Virus record (IMG/VR): IMGVR_UViG_2513237251_000009
Direction: 5' to 3' (one strand)
Source of the DNA: a virus
Taxonomy: Duplodnaviria; Heunggongvirae; Uroviricota; Caudoviricetes
DNA: 64,000 bases
Shown: positions 17-52,744 of the stretch, piece by piece
Layout: each line of letters begins with the position of its first letter
How positions within the stretch are numbered: the first letter of the stretch is position 1
The notes under the pieces: generated by a model
Database searches by the model: none
Seen by the model: the letters and a program-made list of their open reading frames with translations, nothing else
Told to the model about the DNA's origin: nothing
Program-made: the position numbers and the translations under genes

Positions 17-448
17 TCACAGGTGATTCTCCAGACGAAGACCCAGAACACCGGCAATCTCTTCCAGCACCTTGCGCTCTTCCGGCTCAATTTCGCCGTC
101 TGCCTCCGCAATGGCCACCGCCACATCCAGCACATCTTCCGCTTCACGCGTATCGTGTTTCACATCCTCAATCTCACGTAACGCCGCACGACGACCAGTT
201 TTAAAGTTCGTATCCAGCTGACCGATAATGGTTGCGCTAATCGCATTAATTTCTGACGTAAACGCGGACAGCGCAGGCTGATTACGCAGTACCTGTTCGA
301 TCTTCGCTTTCTCGGATGCCTCACATTCACCATCTGCACAGGCCACCAGGTATGCGGCGTTAATCACCACCTGTGCCAGATCGCGTTTTTCAAACTTTTT
401 AATTTCCGTTGCCGCTCTGCGGGTTTTCTTTTTGAAGATTCCAAACAT
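17..448 (-). CDS. TerB-like (tellurite-resistance TerB domain) protein
   Basis: 143 aa from ATG at 448 (MFGIFKKK...); acidic TerB-like helical pattern; paralog at 50981-51413. Confidence 0.6.
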   Translation of the reverse strand: MFGIFKKKTRRAATEIKKFEKRDLAQVVINAAYLVACADGECEASEKAKIEQVLRNQPALSAFTSEINAISATIIGQLDTNFKTGRRAALREIEDVKHDTREAEDVLDVAVAIAEADGEIEPEERKVLEEIAGVLGLRLENHL

Positions 449-580: not shown

Positions 581-604
581 AAAAAAGGCCCGCCGAAGCG
601 AGCC
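581..604 (-). terminator. Intrinsic terminator after the tRNA cluster
   Basis: GC stem GGCTCGC/GCGGGCC with TTCG loop followed by a U-run on the minus strand, just 3' of the tRNA-Arg. Confidence 0.55.
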
Positions 605-617
605 TGGAAAATAAGTG

Positions 618-694
618 TGGCGCGTTGTAGTGGAGTCGAACCACTGACCGATTGCTTAGAAGGCAATTGCTCTGTCCGGCTGAGCTAACAACGC
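618..694 (-). tRNA. argO: tRNA-Arg (anticodon UCU), phage argO-type
   Basis: 77 nt; 7-bp acceptor stem, anticodon stem ATTGC/GCAAT with loop CTTCTAA, T-arm GGTTCGA, 3' CCA. Confidence 0.8.
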
Positions 695-794: not shown

Positions 795-870
795 TGGTGG
801 CCCTTGCTGGATTTGAACCAGCGACCTGGCGATTATGAGTCGCTCGCTCTCACCACTGAGCTAAAGGGCC
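795..870 (-). tRNA. ileZ: tRNA-Ile (CAU anticodon, lysidine-type), phage ileZ-type
   Basis: 76 nt GGCCCTTTAGCTCAGTGG...CTCATAATCG...GGTTCAAATCC...GGGCCACCA; resembles E. coli ileX. Confidence 0.8.
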
Positions 871-898: not shown

Positions 899-1612
899 TC
901 AATAATCAAGCCCTTGCCTGGATACATATCTGTCTGGCGGGAAGCCATAATAGCGGTGAAATACAGAAATAAAGTAGGACCGGCTTGAATAACCACATTT
1001 TTCTGCTACAGCCTGTCCATATCCATACCGGGAACATAACATATTTACAGCAACACGCATCCGCTCTTCCAGCAACAAGCGACTGAACATGCCCCCTTCA
1101 TTTTTCAGTTTTGTCTTTAACAAACTCTCACTCATATGCAACTGTAGAGCAATCGCACCAAGCGTCCAGCTTGCTGATATATCTGTCTGAATTATCGCCC
1201 TGACTTTGGCACTTATGCTGGATAAACATCCACTTAAAAACAATGACATCCGTTCATCTGTTTCAAACAGAGACAGGCAGGCCATCATAAGAAACATATC
1301 CGTGACCTCTCCGGAAAATCCCTGGCTGGTAATTAAAGCCGCAGCCAACGCAGGATTGTTGGGTTCCAGCAACAGGTAAAGCGGAATGTCAGTCAGACGA
1401 GTCCTCGTCAGCTTATGCTGACTTTCCAGATATTGACTTACGACGGATTCGCTTATATCGACAATTTTAACTTTGCCATAATGCATAAGGAAAAGCTCCC
1501 TGATGCATTTGGTGGCCAGAACGACTGAGCCTGGCTTAAGTGACAACGTATCCTTTTCAAGAAAAATATTAATTGGGGAGCAAACCATGATAACTGAACA
1601 GACAACAGCCAT
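899..1612 (-). CDS. AraC-family transcriptional regulator (possibly PatE/YdeO-like)
   Basis: 237 aa ORF; C-terminal AraC-type HTH (..LLLEERMRVAVNML...GYSSRSYFISVFHRYYG); alternative start at 1588. Confidence 0.65.
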   Translation of the reverse strand: MAVVCSVIMVCSPINIFLEKDTLSLKPGSVVLATKCIRELFLMHYGKVKIVDISESVVSQYLESQHKLTRTRLTDIPLYLLLEPNNPALAAALITSQGFSGEVTDMFLMMACLSLFETDERMSLFLSGCLSSISAKVRAIIQTDISASWTLGAIALQLHMSESLLKTKLKNEGGMFSRLLLEERMRVAVNMLCSRYGYGQAVAEKCGYSSRSYFISVFHRYYGFPPDRYVSRQGLDY

Positions 1613-1747
1613 TATAATTTTACTTTCATTAGCAATTGGTTAGCTCAATTATAGCCCCAAAAGGTAAATTATCATCAACACATAAGCAAAGGACTGACAG
1701 GTGCCGCCCCCCCCACCAGCCGCCCATTTACCACAAATAAAAAGCCT

Positions 1748-1945
1748 TCAGGACTGAATGCGTCTGTAACAACCGCACTGATAGTCTGCCAGACCCGCCA
1801 TAACCAGCTGGGTCAGTATTAACTGGCAGCGTTCGCGTGAAAGGTAAGTATTCTGCGCAATCTCCCCGACTGTCGCCGGTTCGGTAACGCTTAATTCATT
1901 AAACACCACTCTGGCGGTTTCTGTCATATCCTGCTGTTTTAGCAT
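1748..1945 (-). CDS. Small hypothetical DNA-binding-like protein
   Basis: 65 aa from ATG 1945 with AGGGA-type RBS; helix-turn-helix-like stretch TVGEIAQNTYLSRERCQ. Confidence 0.4.
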   Translation of the reverse strand: MLKQQDMTETARVVFNELSVTEPATVGEIAQNTYLSRERCQLILTQLVMAGLADYQCGCYRRIQS

Positions 1946-2169
1946 GTCTTTTTCCCTTTTCCGGTTAACGTGACATACCAATAACTCTTGTCGAAAAAGC
2001 CAGCAAGTTGAAAGACCGGTATTAGCAACCACCAGCGCGTTTAACGCCCCGTGCCGTTTTTCAGTCATAAAAAAACCCGCAAAAAGCGGGCTCTTTCAAA
2101 TGTCCATGTCTGCTATTCGCCTCGCGGTACAGCTTTGCGAAGCTTACCGGAATTGAAGCAGTTTTTACG

Positions 2170-4549: not shown

Positions 4550-4894
4550 TTACTTTAATAATTTCAGTGCCTTTACATCAACTTCAACACTGCTCAGGTC
4601 TTTATCAATTTCACCCTCAATTCTTACTTTGTCTTTCGGAGAAACATTCTGCCCGGCCCATACGCTGTCATCAATATCCGTGACAATTGTCCCGCTATTG
4701 TCACGAAACTCATAACGTTCATCACCCACTTTTTTAACGATGCTCCCTTCAAGGATAACCCATGCATCATCCTTCAGTTCTTTTGCCTGCGCTACTGTTG
4801 AACGCTCTGCTTCTGGCCCCTGGAAACCACCCTGCTGTGCAAAAGCGCCAAAAGACACACCGGAAATAAGTGCTGCAATCAATACCTTTTTCAT
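4550..4894 (-). CDS. BOF (YgiW/YdeI-family OB-fold) periplasmic protein
   Basis: 114 aa with signal peptide MKKVLIAALISGVSFGAFA; family pattern DDAWVILEG...YEFRDNSG; absent from prophage B. Confidence 0.7.
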   Translation of the reverse strand: MKKVLIAALISGVSFGAFAQQGGFQGPEAERSTVAQAKELKDDAWVILEGSIVKKVGDERYEFRDNSGTIVTDIDDSVWAGQNVSPKDKVRIEGEIDKDLSSVEVDVKALKLLK

Positions 4895-5013
4895 TCATAG
4901 TCCTCTTTCAGAGATGAACATTCAAACAGCATTTTCAGTATGGTAAAGCGCGGGTGCGTTGAGGATGCCTGACACATCAGAGGTGGCGGGAGATTACTCC
5001 CCCGCCTGGTCTC

Positions 5014-5169
5014 TTACTTCTCAGATTCGTAGTCTACGAAGACAGCGACCTCCGTCTGACCGGTTCGGATTCGCACCTCGCAGAGGTCTTTCCTCGTTAC
5101 CAGTGCCGTCACTATGACGGTTAAACAGATGACGATCAGGGCGATTAACATCGCCTTTTGCTGCTTCAT
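5014..5169 (-). CDS. hokD: Hok/Gef-family type I toxin (HokD/RelF-like)
   Basis: 51 aa MKQQKAMLIALIVICLTVIVTALVTRKDLCEVRIRTGQTEVAVF...; longer in-frame upstream ORF extends to 5226. Confidence 0.8.
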   Translation of the reverse strand: MKQQKAMLIALIVICLTVIVTALVTRKDLCEVRIRTGQTEVAVFVDYESEK

Positions 5170-5379
5170 AGCCTGCTTCTCCTTGCCTTTCGGCACGTAA
5201 GAGGCTAACCTACATGTGTTCAGCATGGATTGAGCCTCAGATTAATGTTAAGCGTCTTGCAGGACGCGTAATGTTAACTGGGGCTTTTCTCTATCTGCCG
5301 TTGGTGTTCATGCCCGAGGCAGATAGCCTCAAGCACCCGCAGCAATTCTACTTAACTATCCTTTTCCCGCAAACCGTTT

Positions 5380-15379: not shown

Positions 15380-16270
15380 TCAGGCTGCCAGATCATCGTT
15401 TCCGATGGAAGCATAATAAGCTTTTTCTGCTTCTGCCGGAGGAGTATGGCCCAGCCTTCCCAGCAATCGTCGATTGTTATACCAGTCCACCCACGTTAGT
15501 GTGGCCAGTTCCACTTCTGCACGGTTTTTCCAGCTCTTACGGTGTATTACCTCCGCTTTGTAAAGACCATTGATGCTCTCAGCCATCGCGTTGTCATACG
15601 AGTCGCCTGTACTCCCTGTTGATGCCAGTAATCCGGCTTCTTTTAGTCGCTCCGTATAGGCCAGTGACACATACTGAGAGCCTTTATCGCTGTGATGGAT
15701 GGTGCCAGACGGACGACGGGCCCACAACGCCTGCTCCAGCGCATCCAGCACGAATGTCGTTTCCATAGACGATGAGACCCGCCACCCCACGATGTATCCG
15801 GCAAACACATCAATGATAAACGCCACATAGACGAAGCCCTGCCATGTGCTGACGTAAGTAAAATCAGCCACCCACAGCTGGTCAGGTCGTTCTGCCACGA
15901 ACTGACGGTTTACGCGGTCGCCTGCGGCAACGGCTTTCCGGCTGATGGTCGTACGGACCTTTTTACCCCGGAGAACACCGGCAAGTCCCATAACCGCCAT
16001 GAGACGTGCCACTGTACATCTGGCCACCCTGATTCCTTCCCGTAACAACTGACGCCAGACTTTACGCACACCGTACACCTGATGATTTTCATCGTATACG
16101 CGCTGTATCTCTCTCTTCAGCCAGTCGTCGTGCTGCGCACGGGCACTGCGTTTATCCGGATGATGTCGCTGTTGCTGACAATGGTAATACGTTGACGGGG
16201 CAATATGCAGTTCGCTGCATACCGGTCCGACCCCGTACTGCTCACGCAGCTTATCCAGCAGTGGCATCAT
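15380..16270 (-). CDS. IS629 transposase OrfB
   Basis: 296 aa IS3-family DDE integrase-core protein. Confidence 0.85.
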
Positions 16271-16593
16271 TTTTTCCAGAGGCGGTCGAACTCCGCCTTC
16301 GCAAAATAAGCGGAAGCCTGGCGAAGGATATCGTTACTGCGGCGCAGTTCACGATTTTCACGTTCCAGCTCTTTCAGACGCTGACGTTCAGCGCTGGTGA
16401 GCCCACCATCACCGCCCCCGGTATCCCGCTCATGCTGGCGAACCCAGACACGCAGAGTCTCCGGCGTACAGCCAATCTTTGGGGCAATGGAACAAATTGC
16501 CGCCCACTGTGAGTCATATTCATCCTGACTTTCCAGAACCATACGAATCGCCCGCTGACGGACTTCGGGGGAAAAACGAGTATTTTTAGTCAT
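16267..16593 (-). CDS. IS629 transposase OrfA
   Basis: 108 aa HTH/leucine-zipper OrfA; overlaps orfB as expected for IS3-family frameshifting. Confidence 0.85.
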
Positions 16594-17691
16594 CCTGTTT
16601 ACCTCTTTCTCAGGGAGTTTAGTCTCCAGGATTTCCGGGGCGGTTCACCTTTCAGTTACTCGCACCGCCGATAAAGATTCTGCAAAAACTTTTGTTCAGG
16701 AGACGCTGAAAGATACCTGGGAGTCTGCTGACGAGTGGTTTGTTCGCTAATTAACGAGTAAAATCGACCCTGTACACGATTCTGTGTAAATGCCTTTTCT
16801 CAGAAGTGACCGTCCAGGCGGTCACCGAACTCGATAATAAAGCGGCTCATTGCCATACGCCAGTCCCGCAGTGGCATCGTCCATTTCTGTGAAGCCGCCT
16901 GGATTGCCAGCCACACGACCTTTTTCACTGAGTCATCCGTCGGGAACACCTTGCGTTTTTTGATGGCATGCCGGATTACGCTGTTCAGCGACTCGATGGC
17001 GTTGGTTGTGTAGATGACTTTGCGGATATCTGCCGGGTAAGCGAAGAACATCGCCAGGTTGGTCCAGTTTGCCTGCCAGCTCCGGCTTATCTGCGGGTAG
17101 CGACTGTCCCAGGCGCTGGCGAACGCTTCCAGCGCCTGCTGGCCTGCTTCTTCTGTGGGGGCCTGGTAGATGGCTTTCAGGTCGCGGGTGACGGCTTTGT
17201 AGTCCTTCCAGGAAACGAACCGCAGGCTGTTGCGCACCATATGCACGATGCACAGCTGGATGCGGGCTTCCGGATACACCGTGTTGATAGCGTCCGGGAA
17301 GCCTTTCAGCCCGTCGACACAGGCTATGAGAATATCGTTCAGGCCGCGGTTTTTTAGTTCAGTCAGCACATTGAGCCAGAACTTCGCTCCCTCGTTTTCG
17401 GCCAGCCACATACCCAGTAACTCTTTCTGGCCTTCGATATTGATACCCAGTGCGAGGAATACGGATTTATTGATTACGCGACTGTCCTGCCGAACCTTCA
17501 GGACAATACAGTCAAGATAAACAATGGGATAGACCGCATCCAGTGGCCGGTTTTGCCATTCGACTACCTGCTCCATAACGGCATCGGTGACCTTCGATAC
17601 CAGCGCCGGTGAGACATCAGGTAAGCGTACAGCCTGAACCGTCTGGTCAGAATCTGACGAATTAGACAAAGTGGTGTCCACCAAATAAGTA

Positions 17692-18093
17692 GTGGGAACC
17701 AAAGTATCAGATATGCAGAAAAATGTGACTCCCGGCAGGCGAAAAGGCTGCCCTAATTATCCTCCCGAATTTAAACAGCAGCTCGTTGCTGCCTCCTGTG
17801 AACCCGGGATATCCATCTCAAAACTTGCTCTTGAAAATGGCATTAACGCAAATCTGTTGTTCAAATGGCGACAACAATGGCGCGAGGGAAAGCTGCTATT
17901 ACCTTCTTCAGAGAGCCCCCAGCTACTTCCTGTGACTCTCGATGCAGCTGCCGAACAGCCAGAATCGCTCGCAGAGGACCCGGAAACCCTCAGTATCAGC
18001 TGTGAGGTAACGTTCCGGCACGGGACGCTCCGCTTCAATGGCAATGTCAGCGAAAAGCTCCTGACTCTGCTGATACAGGAACTGAAGCGATGA
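17692..18093 (+). CDS. IS66-family TnpA (orf1)
   Basis: 133 aa ORF. Confidence 0.7.
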   Translation: MGTKVSDMQKNVTPGRRKGCPNYPPEFKQQLVAASCEPGISISKLALENGINANLLFKWRQQWREGKLLLPSSESPQLLPVTLDAAAEQPESLAEDPETLSISCEVTFRHGTLRFNGNVSEKLLTLLIQELKR

Positions 18094-18437
18094 TCCCGTT
18101 ACCTTCCGGGACCAAAATTTGGCTGGTTGCCGGTATCACCGATATGAGAAATGGCTTCAACGGCCTGGCTGCGAAAGTACAAACGGCGCTGAAAGACGAT
18201 CCCATGTCCGGCCATGTTTTCATTTTCCGGGGCCGCAGCGGCAGTCAGGTTAAACTGCTGTGGTCCACCGGTGACGGACTGTGCCTCCTGACCAAACGGC
18301 TGGAGCGTGGGCGCTTCGCCTGGCCGTCAGCCCGTGATGGCAAAGTGTTCCTTACGCAGGCGCAGCTGGCGATGCTGCTGGAAGGTATCGACTGGCGACA
18401 GCCTAAGCGGCTGCTGACCTCCCTGACCATGCTGTAA
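18090..18437 (+). CDS. IS66-family TnpB (orf2)
   Basis: 115 aa ORF overlapping tnpA stop. Confidence 0.75.
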
Positions 18438-18486
18438 ATCTCTTTATCCTGGTTGTCACAGAATAAGCCCGGTAAAATACGGGCTT

Positions 18487-51588: not shown

Positions 51589-51665
51589 TGGCGCGTTGTA
51601 CTGGAGTCGAACCAGTGACCGATTGCTTAGAAGGCAATTGCTCTGTCCTGCTGAGCTAAAAACGC
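51589..51665 (-). tRNA. argO: tRNA-Arg (UCU), argO-type
   Basis: Near-identical to 618-694 with one acceptor-stem mismatch. Confidence 0.75.
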
Positions 51666-51678
51666 AGAATACCGATAA

Positions 51679-51755
51679 TGGACCGCCATCGGAGACTCGA
51701 ACCCCGCGAAACCAGCTTCGAAGGCTGGCGTTCTATCCCGATGAGCTAATGGCGG
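51679..51755 (-). tRNA. argN: tRNA-Arg (UCG), argN-type
   Basis: Anticodon loop CTTCGAA, T-arm GGGGTTCGAGTCTCC, 3' CCA. Confidence 0.75.
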
Positions 51756-51762
51756 TATGTGA

Positions 51763-51838
51763 TGGTGGCCCTTGCTGGATTTGAACCAGCGGCCTGGCGA
51801 TTATGAGTCGCTCGCTCTCACCACTGAGCTAAAGGGCC
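51763..51838 (-). tRNA. ileZ: tRNA-Ile (CAU, lysidine-type), ileZ-type
   Basis: Near-identical to 795-870. Confidence 0.8.
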
Positions 51839-52048: not shown

Positions 52049-52744
52049 TCAATCTACTTTTGCAACACTTTGCTTTGAAAATGCCGCCTTTTGTTTTGAA
52101 CGCGTTCTCATTACAAACAATAAAGCCTCACTATCCAGTCGGTGAAAAATGTGTTTCATTGCAACCCAGTGACGAGTAAATGTTTTGGACCAGTTTTTAG
52201 TTGTCACTCCCACCAGTAATGCCAGCTCCTTGTATTCATAACCTTCCCCACCAAAAAGTTCTGCTTTTACTGCCTGCGCCGCCAGCCAGATTAATTTTTT
52301 CAGGCGTTCCTGCGTTTTCCCTGCAATTTTTCTGGTACCGGATTGAGTATTAAATTCATTCCACGCCCACTGTGTTATCGCGATCTGATATTCCCAACAA
52401 ATACTCCCGCTGTAACACCACAACAACCAGGCTTTATGATGTTCTTCAAGAGACAGAACAGCCCGCCGCCACGATGATGTCGAAAACTCAACCGGACTGA
52501 CCAGAGGAATTGACGTCACCTTCGCCAGCGATTGCTTTCCCGGGATTGGTGGATTATCCCGCGTTATCATTTTTCCAGTCACTTCATCGCGGTACCGGAT
52601 TTTTTTTCGCCTGTAACGCCCTGTATCGAACATGGCATTCTCCTGCCAGGCTTCAAGCTGACCTTTTGTTGCCCCACTCAAATCAGCGGTGGCGATAATG
52701 AGCTGCTCACGCACAAACTGTAAATAGTGGTTATTCATGCGCAC
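52049..52744 (-). CDS. Putative late antiterminator Q (QuuQ-like family)
   Basis: 231 aa, by position between RusA and late tRNAs; unrelated to prophage A Q. Confidence 0.5.
   Translation of the reverse strand: MRMNNHYLQFVREQLIIATADLSGATKGQLEAWQENAMFDTGRYRRKKIRYRDEVTGKMITRDNPPIPGKQSLAKVTSIPLVSPVEFSTSSWRRAVLSLEEHHKAWLLWCYSGSICWEYQIAITQWAWNEFNTQSGTRKIAGKTQERLKKLIWLAAQAVKAELFGGEGYEYKELALLVGVTTKNWSKTFTRHWVAMKHIFHRLDSEALLFVMRTRSKQKAAFSKQSVAKVD

Follow-up and report, generated by a model that had tools for sequence, protein, structure and literature searches.

psrB of Escherichia coli O157:H7 as a predicted cargo cassette in a prophage late-leader slot normally occupied by a Dam-like methylase gene

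PsrA and PsrB are prophage-encoded AraC-like proteins reported to lower type III secretion indirectly, by raising the levels of GadE and YhiF. PsrB is reported to bind the gadE promoter and the hdeA promoter (-132 to -45) and to increase survival both at pH 2.5–3.5 and during passage through the mouse stomach (PMC10877973, PMC8565820, PMC8147483, PMC10057817). Another prophage-borne AraC-like activator of the gad/hdeA acid-resistance genes, PatE (Z0321 in O-island (OI) 8 of strain EDL933, positions 309101–309844), has the same architecture as PsrB, but its gene is situated at the end of a P4/P2-like remnant and not between the antiterminator gene Q and the tRNA genes of a lambdoid prophage. 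Here we analyze an AraC-type gene that does occupy the latter position, at 899–1612 (minus strand) of a 64,000-nucleotide stretch of DNA, IMG/VR virus record IMGVR_UViG_2513237251_000009. This whole stretch is referred to below as the window, and coordinates are those of the window unless another genome is named. A first-pass annotation, made from the sequence of the window, had distinguished two prophages in it, A and B, and had proposed that the AraC-type gene of prophage A encodes a host-directed regulator of the PatE kind.

Our analysis indicates that the gene is psrB itself. We consider it highly probable that psrB of the window resides in a locked-in prophage, Sp11, that it encodes the activator of gadE and hdeA described in the literature, and that it forms a cargo cassette with its own predicted promoter in a slot commonly used by a methylase gene.

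Identity and relatives of the AraC-type gene

The origin of the region could be established by alignment. Positions 1–22967 of the window match positions 2189034–2212000 of the E. coli O157:H7 Sakai chromosome (NC_002695.2) at 100% identity. Since the RefSeq annotation of Sakai has Sp11 extending up to 2204088 and Sp12 beginning at 2204089, prophage A corresponds to Sp11 and prophage B to Sp12. The Sakai locus tags ECs_2193, ECs_2192 and ECs_2191 denote the Q gene, a small open reading frame (ORF) and the AraC gene, respectively. In EDL933, the counterpart of the Sp11 region is OI-57/CP-933O.

Genotyping primers published for EDL933 Z2104, with an amplicon of 158 bp (PMC4763077), match the window exactly at 1333–1352 (minus strand) and 1195–1214 (plus strand), so that the 158-bp product falls within the AraC ORF. 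Primers for Z2102 and Z2101 map to the neighboring genes, Q and RusA, respectively. Moreover, an identical protein, WP_000301797.1, is encoded at 1905274–1905987 of EDL933, within the coordinates given for OI-57 (1849324–1929825; PMC8565820). Because Z2104 is named psrB in two reviews (PMC10877973, PMC8565820), the primer matches and the identical protein identify the gene at 899–1612 (Z2104/ECs_2191; AraC/XylS family, 237 amino acids (aa)), at the level of sequence, as psrB, an already characterized regulator of E. coli O157:H7. The proposal of a host-directed regulator was therefore sound, and the regulator has a name. In the Sakai RefSeq annotation the start of ECs_2191 (NC_002695.2 2189932–2190519) is placed 42 codons late, giving a protein of 195 aa, whereas the Prokaryotic Genome Annotation Pipeline (PGAP) gives 237 aa. 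The longer form is backed by the N-terminal VCSVI-type motif and by the alignment to YdeO, GadW, AppY and PatE.

The GC content of the psrB ORF is 43.8%, compared with 52.1% for the window. A survey of 5426 complete E. coli genomes revealed DNA resembling psr at 80% identity or more in 725, and in 588 of these the identity is at least 99%. The carriers include O157:H7, O145, O103, O111, O26, O55:H7, the neonatal meningitis E. coli S88 and some porcine enterotoxigenic E. coli. Two psr copies are typical of an O157 genome, and the psrB ORF is intact and 100% conserved over hundreds of O157 genomes.

At the protein level, both Pfam profiles for the AraC-type DNA-binding domain recognize PsrB: HTH_AraC scores 50 bits over two stretches (gathering threshold 26.6) and HTH_18 scores 37.8 bits over residues 155–230 (threshold 33.6). 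PsrB has the C-terminal region of ~100 aa with two helix-turn-helix (HTH) motifs by which AraC/XylS proteins are defined. The best match in PDB is the DNA-binding domain of GadX (2.2e-18, residues 134–233), and the best NCBIfam profiles are those of YdeO, GadX and HilD. However, PsrB reaches only 106 bits against the YdeO equivalog (NF007407; cut-off 348) and 87 bits against that of GadX (NF007432; cut-off 500). Because these scores are so far below the cut-offs, PsrB appears to be a member of the subgroup and an orthologue of none of its proteins. Orthology to YdeO or GadX was rejected on the same scores together with identities of 30% and 26%, respectively, and orthology to PatE on a global identity of 36% and a different prophage type and position.

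Alignment to PatE, YdeO and GadX, the comparison by which the first-pass annotation had proposed to judge the gene, gave a positive answer. PsrB can be aligned over its full length, from residue 1, with PatE (36–37% identity), GadW (33–34%), YdeO (30–31%) and AppY (28–29%), and with GadX over the C-terminal half only (41% locally, 26% overall). The VCSVI-type motif at the N-terminus is common to PsrB, PatE, GadW, YdeO and AppY but not GadX. On the basis of these alignments, PsrB belongs to the GadW/YdeO/AppY/PatE subgroup of AraC/XylS activators. GadW, YdeO, AppY and GadX, which are encoded on the chromosome or in DLP12, share with PsrB both the subgroup and the regulon (acid resistance system 2 (AR2)/gadE), but differ from it considerably in sequence (26–34% identity).

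The closest relative of PsrB in EDL933 is a paralogue of the PsrA type, WP_000261909.1 (1266008–1266721), which also has 237 aa and is 90.7% identical to PsrB. As the published identity between PsrA and PsrB is 90%, this value fits the identification of psrB. The two loci have the same local module, consisting of the small ORF, psr, ileZ and arginine tRNA genes. They differ in that the paralogue lies in the serT/hyaA prophage with tccP2 and a nearby pch gene, has a different Q type and a CPBP protease gene upstream, is accompanied by a frameshifted small ORF, and is followed by three tRNA genes instead of two. Reviews place PsrA at z1789 in OI-50/CP-933N. We found no psr homologue in the resequenced OI-50 region of EDL933. 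According to another paper, z1789 adjoins z1793, an esterase gene, and at this place the Q gene is located in the resequenced genome. The assignment of PsrA to a locus tag and prophage in the secondary literature looks inconsistent.

The psrB cassette and the slot between Q and the tRNA genes

On the minus strand, the gene order at the locus is Q (2170–2724), an intrinsic terminator, the small ORF, which is predicted to encode a winged helix-turn-helix (wHTH) protein, psrB, a tRNA gene with the CAU anticodon and a tRNA-Arg(UCU) gene. Both ORFs that had been called from the sequence, at 899–1612 and 1748–1945, are present on this strand, and the RefSeq/PGAP annotation of O157 genomes agrees with them.

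The limits of the psrB cassette emerge from comparison with phages phiP27 and SfV. Homology to these phages extends from 2080 to 1676, beginning within the terminator, covering the small ORF and ending 72 bp past the stop codon of this ORF. Homology to phiP27 then resumes at 874, only 4 nt before the tRNA. What remains between these points is an 801-bp cassette (875–1675) made up of psrB and its upstream region. Its GC content is 41.7%, compared with 50.0% for the small ORF, 52.0% for RusA and 52.1% for the window. The left junction of the cassette cuts a structured leader that belongs to a methylase gene in related phages. A gene for a Dam-like DNA methylase of ~350 aa is situated in this slot in phiP27, SfV, Citrobacter phage phiNP, cdtI and Stx2a_1447. 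Among 107 evaluable IMG/VR loci with the leader motif, the gene downstream is the methylase in 95, psr in four, the methylase together with a Psr-like gene in one, and neither in seven; the small ORF is found upstream of the motif in 102 of the 107. From these alignments we conclude that psrB is a low-GC cargo cassette in a fixed lambdoid late-leader slot between the wHTH ORF and ileZ.

The best described occupants of this slot are the cassettes consisting of the small ORF and the Dam-like methylase gene (L23–L24 in phiP27, orf47–orf48 in SfV and orf55–orf56 in cdtI). They have the same left flank as the psrB locus (terminator tail, wHTH ORF and first leader hairpin), the same right flank (ileZ) and the same position between Q and the lysis/stx genes. 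The difference is that at the psrB locus the methylase and most of the structured leader have been replaced by psrB. A wider parallel is provided by phage morons such as stx in the late operon or bor and lom of lambda. Like psrB, they are host-directed extra genes with deviant GC and a promoter-like site, placed between backbone genes. Two traits by which morons are recognized, a backbone-flanked slot that holds another gene in relatives and a deviant composition, are both seen for psrB. Unlike the morons, however, psrB replaces another accessory gene and lacks a terminator of its own ahead of the tRNAs.

In the single locus with both genes (L070:5364–7350 in IMG/VR), the small ORF and the leader precede the methylase gene, and directly after the latter comes a distinct Psr-like AraC gene of 241 aa, the product of which is ~47% identical over the 107 aa aligned. 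This arrangement suggests that genes of the psr type were initially acquired behind the methylase gene, which would have been lost later in the PsrA/PsrB lineage.

How does this locus relate to its counterpart in prophage B? There, Q had been described as directly followed by the tRNAs, and this is indeed the case: Q_B (52049–52744) and three tRNA genes (51589–51838) are separated by 210 bp with no conserved ORF between them. Within the gap, a promoter resembling pR' (TTGCAA-17-TATATT) is accompanied by a terminator hairpin. The related statement, that the AraC gene and the small ORF were inserted in prophage A relative to prophage B, did not survive the comparison. Homology between the two prophages reaches as far as the start codon of Q (4166 to 2724 in A, 54168 to 52732 in B; 93%) and sets in again 4 nt ahead of the first tRNA (874 to 1 in A, 51842 to 50965 in B; 94%). 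The stretch in between, 1849 bp in A and 889 bp in B, is non-homologous, and the Q types are unrelated (phrog_753 in A, phrog_304 in B). A simple insertion into a shared backbone was therefore ruled out. Because everything from the Q start to the tRNA differs, including the Q type, the difference between A and B is best read as a swap of the whole Q-to-tRNA module. Homology of the window to phages with other Q types begins at 2080, within the terminator.

The small ORF (1748–1945, minus strand; ECs_2192, and Z2103 by gene order) encodes a 65-aa protein that matches phrog_331 (3.9e-37). An AlphaFold2 model based on an alignment of 21 homologues shows three helices and a beta hairpin arranged as a winged helix, with a mean pLDDT of 89.8. 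Foldseek matched this model to generic wHTH domains only (IclR, MarR/OhrR and O-methyltransferases), with TM-scores of 0.7–0.8. Pfam matches were below threshold (TrmB with 16.7 bits against 25.6, and likewise MarR_2 and DprA_WH), the NCBIfam search gave no match, and the PDB sequence search gave no meaningful one. As modeled, the product is a stand-alone wHTH protein of no specific family beyond phrog_331. Pairwise comparison of six phage homologues revealed 92, 83 and 298 substitutions at codon positions 1, 2 and 3, respectively. Because of this third-position bias, we regard the small ORF as a real coding gene under purifying selection. The first-pass annotation had correctly delimited the 65-aa ORF at 1748–1945, but the end that it gave for the region, 2068, is where an ORF of 106 aa, the longest one possible, would begin. 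We rejected this longer reading (1748–2068, minus strand): it is interrupted by stop codons in phiP27 and in the paralogue locus, has no conserved start and begins in the T-run of the terminator. The extension does score in phrog_331 despite this rejection. The conserved start of the small protein is MLKQQDMTE.

The small ORF had also been taken for cargo that accompanies the AraC gene, and in this respect the initial view had to be abandoned. We counted 55 phage records with the ORF, among them Stx2 phages, phiP27, SfV and phages of Klebsiella, Citrobacter and Hafnia, but only one with a psr above 90% identity. Likewise, the DNA segment of the small ORF maps to 4851 places, distributed over 2279 complete E. 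coli genomes, compared with 1322 places for psr DNA among complete E. coli genomes. Inclusion of the small ORF in the psrB cassette was rejected, as the ORF is outside the junction at 1676, has the GC content of the backbone, is far commoner than psr and usually precedes the methylase gene. Next to the paralogous psr, it carries a 1-nt deletion and is frameshifted both in EDL933 (L011:15675–15871) and in strain 10671 (L007:8667–8906), and it is intact next to psrB. Being widespread, linked to the methylase and frameshifted beside the paralogue, the small ORF is a phage backbone gene and not psrB co-cargo; the frameshifts also indicate that it is dispensable for Psr function.

Between the small ORF and psrB, the window retains the first stem-loop (1682–1727, minus strand) of a conserved structured leader, which elsewhere reaches the start codon of the methylase gene. 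The 17-mer AATGGGCGGCTGGTGGG (1712–1728) is invariant in all eight diverse loci that were aligned, and conservation is higher in the non-coding stretch past the small ORF than in that ORF. A 19-mer consensus of AATGGGCGGCTGGTGGG matches at least 120 IMG/VR contigs; the window differs from it at the last base. The full leader, with ~135 nt between the wHTH ORF and the methylase gene, was observed at L008:3699–3848, L010:3196–3344, L017:3199–3348 and ~95 IMG/VR loci (L018–L137). In 40 distinct methylase leaders, the sequences are consistent with a multi-helix fold with covarying pairs: UA 23, CG 11 and AU 6 at pair 45–69, with none unpaired; CG 16 and UA 12 at pair 83–104; and GC 12, AU 12 and GU 10 at pair 58–134, by the start codon. 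Part of the fold given by RNAalifold cannot form together with one of the leader helices. A GATC site is located just before the methylase ATG. The search of Rfam identified no family for either the leader or the hairpin remnant. In the window only the first stem-loop is left, because the psrB cassette replaced the remainder of the leader. The loop of this hairpin (1704–1714, minus strand) has the G-run GGGGGGGG in the window and GGGTGTTAG in the paralogue, the Stx2k phage and the methylase phages.

Expression of psrB

A sigma-70-like promoter (ATGATA-16-TATAAT; 1648–1675, minus strand) is predicted 35 nt before the psrB ATG, with 10 of 12 positions matching the consensus. Its first base is also the first base of the cassette, and its TATAAT is kept in the two other psr loci aligned, those of the paralogue and of the Stx2k phage. 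Because the cassette thus brings its own predicted promoter, PsrB could be made in a lysogen in the absence of Q. We found no terminator between psrB and the tRNA genes. The first one is at 586–605 (minus strand; an 8-bp stem with six GC pairs, followed by a T-run), and the transcript would probably comprise psrB-ileZ-argO and end there. According to the literature, the C-terminal double HTH of PsrB would then bind the host gadE and hdeA promoters, by which the glutamate decarboxylase (GAD) acid-resistance regulon would be switched on and, via GadE and YhiF, type III secretion encoded by LEE (locus of enterocyte effacement) would be lowered. The small wHTH ORF would be a backbone gene in this scheme and not a partner required by PsrB.

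The Q gene upstream (ECs_2193/Z2102; Q_A) is of the DUF1133 type (Pfam DUF1133, 3.7e-105; Phage_antitermQ, a weak match of 5.9e-8). It matches PHROG 753, 'anti-termination protein Q-like' (5e-81), is annotated as a phage antiterminator in Sakai and contains the site of the published Z2102 primer at 2534–2554. About 75 nt past its stop codon there is an intrinsic terminator (2069–2097, minus strand), GCCCGC-UUUUU-GCGGG followed by seven U residues. Folding of the region from 2172 to 2050 gives a 13-bp hairpin with a minimum free energy of -38.3 kcal/mol (z = -2.81), which probably represents the tR'-like end of a short leader. If Q-modified polymerase ran past this terminator, it would add a psrB transcript during late transcription. 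In sum, expression from the cassette's own predicted promoter in the lysogen, with possible read-through, appears more likely than dependence on Q. The stretch between the Q stop codon and the terminator (2070–2143, minus strand) has a sub-threshold Rfam match to isrK (19.8 bits, E 0.57), a small RNA (sRNA) of Gifsy-1 from the equivalent place. An EDL933 sRNA, EvrS, likewise maps just behind the Q gene of a prophage (PMC11774850). The Q-proximal stretch of the window may give rise to a short leader RNA that ends at the terminator.

A number of observations weigh against such a reading of psrB and its expression. The promoter scan returned 3 sites, compared with 3.2 in shuffled sequence, and so there is no excess of promoter-like sites. 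At the scan threshold, no canonical promoter that could serve as pR' of Q_A was detected between the Q stop codon and the terminator, and the DUF1133 protein is considered an antiterminator by homology alone. Our account of PsrB function follows reviews in which Tree 2011 and Yang 2015 are summarized. As reported there, deletion of psrB alone has little effect on secretion, and the effects on acid survival were seen under induced expression (PMC10877973, PMC8565820). Since the single deletion is mild and the effects come from induced expression, the native output of the psrB copy in the window may be small.

Could psrB be expressed chiefly from the Q-antiterminated late transcript, as the co-induction with the lytic program proposed in the first-pass annotation would imply? 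If so, increased acid resistance and decreased type III secretion would be coupled to prophage induction and not to lysogenic growth. We regard this as possible, though clearly the less probable arrangement. The position of psrB speaks for it: the gene has the orientation of Q and lies behind the first intrinsic terminator that follows Q and ahead of the tRNA and lysis genes. In addition, in the complete phage phiSTEC1575-Stx2k a 91.6%-identical psr is flanked by Q on one side and by ileZ-argN-argO-stx2k on the other, where the known Q-dependent stx transcript is located. On the other hand, in Sp11 both the repressor and the integrase are disrupted, and neither excision nor replication nor packaging of this prophage was observed (PMC2669165). 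The promoter-like site right upstream of psrB, at the cassette edge, and the failure of the promoter scan to find pR' for Q_A also argue against dependence on Q. As for transcript data, we found no mention of ECs2191 in literature text and nothing for ECs2191–2193 in the supplements of a sulfamethoxazole-trimethoprim (SMX-TM) induction transcriptome. Finally, a regulator made only in cells close to lysis would be of little benefit to the host.

A somewhat less probable alternative is that psrB of the window is essentially silent, a redundant remnant in a decaying prophage that matters little in nature, since its function is already covered by PsrA, PatE, GadX, GadW and YdeO. The low GC content of the cassette is, as a matter of general knowledge, typical of DNA silenced by H-NS. 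Furthermore, Sp11 is defective (PMC2669165), deletion of psrB had no significant effect on secretion, and the phenotypes were obtained with expression in trans or induced expression (PMC10877973, PMC8565820). Against a silent remnant speaks that the ORF is intact and invariant across hundreds of O157 genomes and has close copies in O26, O103, O111, O145 and O55:H7; among the 5426 complete genomes a copy is carried by 725, and in 588 cases it is at least 99% identical.

We consider it improbable that the 65-aa wHTH protein and the structured leader constitute an undescribed control module that gates the cargo of the slot, whether the Dam-like methylase or, here, psrB, and is thereby able to tie PsrB output, and with it acid resistance and type III secretion, to late transcription. 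Such a tie is conceivable because the psrB locus keeps both the wHTH gene and the first leader hairpin. If true, it would also link PsrB to stx expression in phages of the Stx2k type.

Least plausible of all is a two-gene regulatory unit in which the small protein controls or partners PsrB in the style of a controller protein: in each of the three psr loci that we examined, the wHTH ORF and psr are neighbors with the same orientation, and the small protein has a DNA-binding fold in the AlphaFold2 model, but the small ORF is far commoner than psr, normally stands ahead of the methylase gene, resembles the backbone in GC content (50.0%, the cassette having 41.7%), is outside the cassette junction, and is frameshifted beside the paralogue, the copy with the stronger phenotype according to reviews.

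Surroundings of the locus and biological significance

Of the two tRNA genes downstream of psrB, the one with the CAU anticodon (ileZ5; 795–870, minus strand) is called Met by ARAGORN and Ile2 by RefSeq. The other, tRNA-Arg(UCU) (argO5; 618–694, minus strand), is supported both by tRNA calls and by the Sakai annotation. A terminator like the one at 586–605 also follows the tRNA genes of prophage B. Past the tRNA genes, EDL933 and Sakai have holin and lysozyme genes, in this order, and the window has a TerB-family gene (17–448, minus strand), identified by a profile match and annotation. Further cargo is present in the early-right region of Sp11 (4550–5338, minus strand), where a gene of the YgiW/YdeI stress-tolerance family (4550–4894) is accompanied by a hok/sok type I toxin-antitoxin system (hok at 5014–5169; Rfam sok at 5164–5338, 113.5 bits). 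At the Sp11/Sp12 junction (15380–20459), IS629 and ISEc8 lie within a remnant of the IS256 family, beside nleG pseudogenes. This IS629 is missing from EDL933 and TR01, and for this reason the coordinates of both strains shift relative to the window after ~15 kb.

psrB at 899–1612 is already known, and because its role has been established since 2011–2015, the copy in the window adds no new regulator biology. Our contribution is one of context: psrB is located in a defined cargo slot that is normally used by a Dam-like methylase gene, the adjoining small HTH gene belongs to the phage backbone, and this copy of psrB belongs to a prophage, Sp11, that is not inducible in the ordinary way. Such context matters mainly for the design of transcript-mapping and deletion experiments at the locus. 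In the biology of E. coli O157:H7, PsrB stands as an example of how prophage cargo can rewire core stress and virulence circuits of the host, namely GAD acid resistance and LEE type III secretion.

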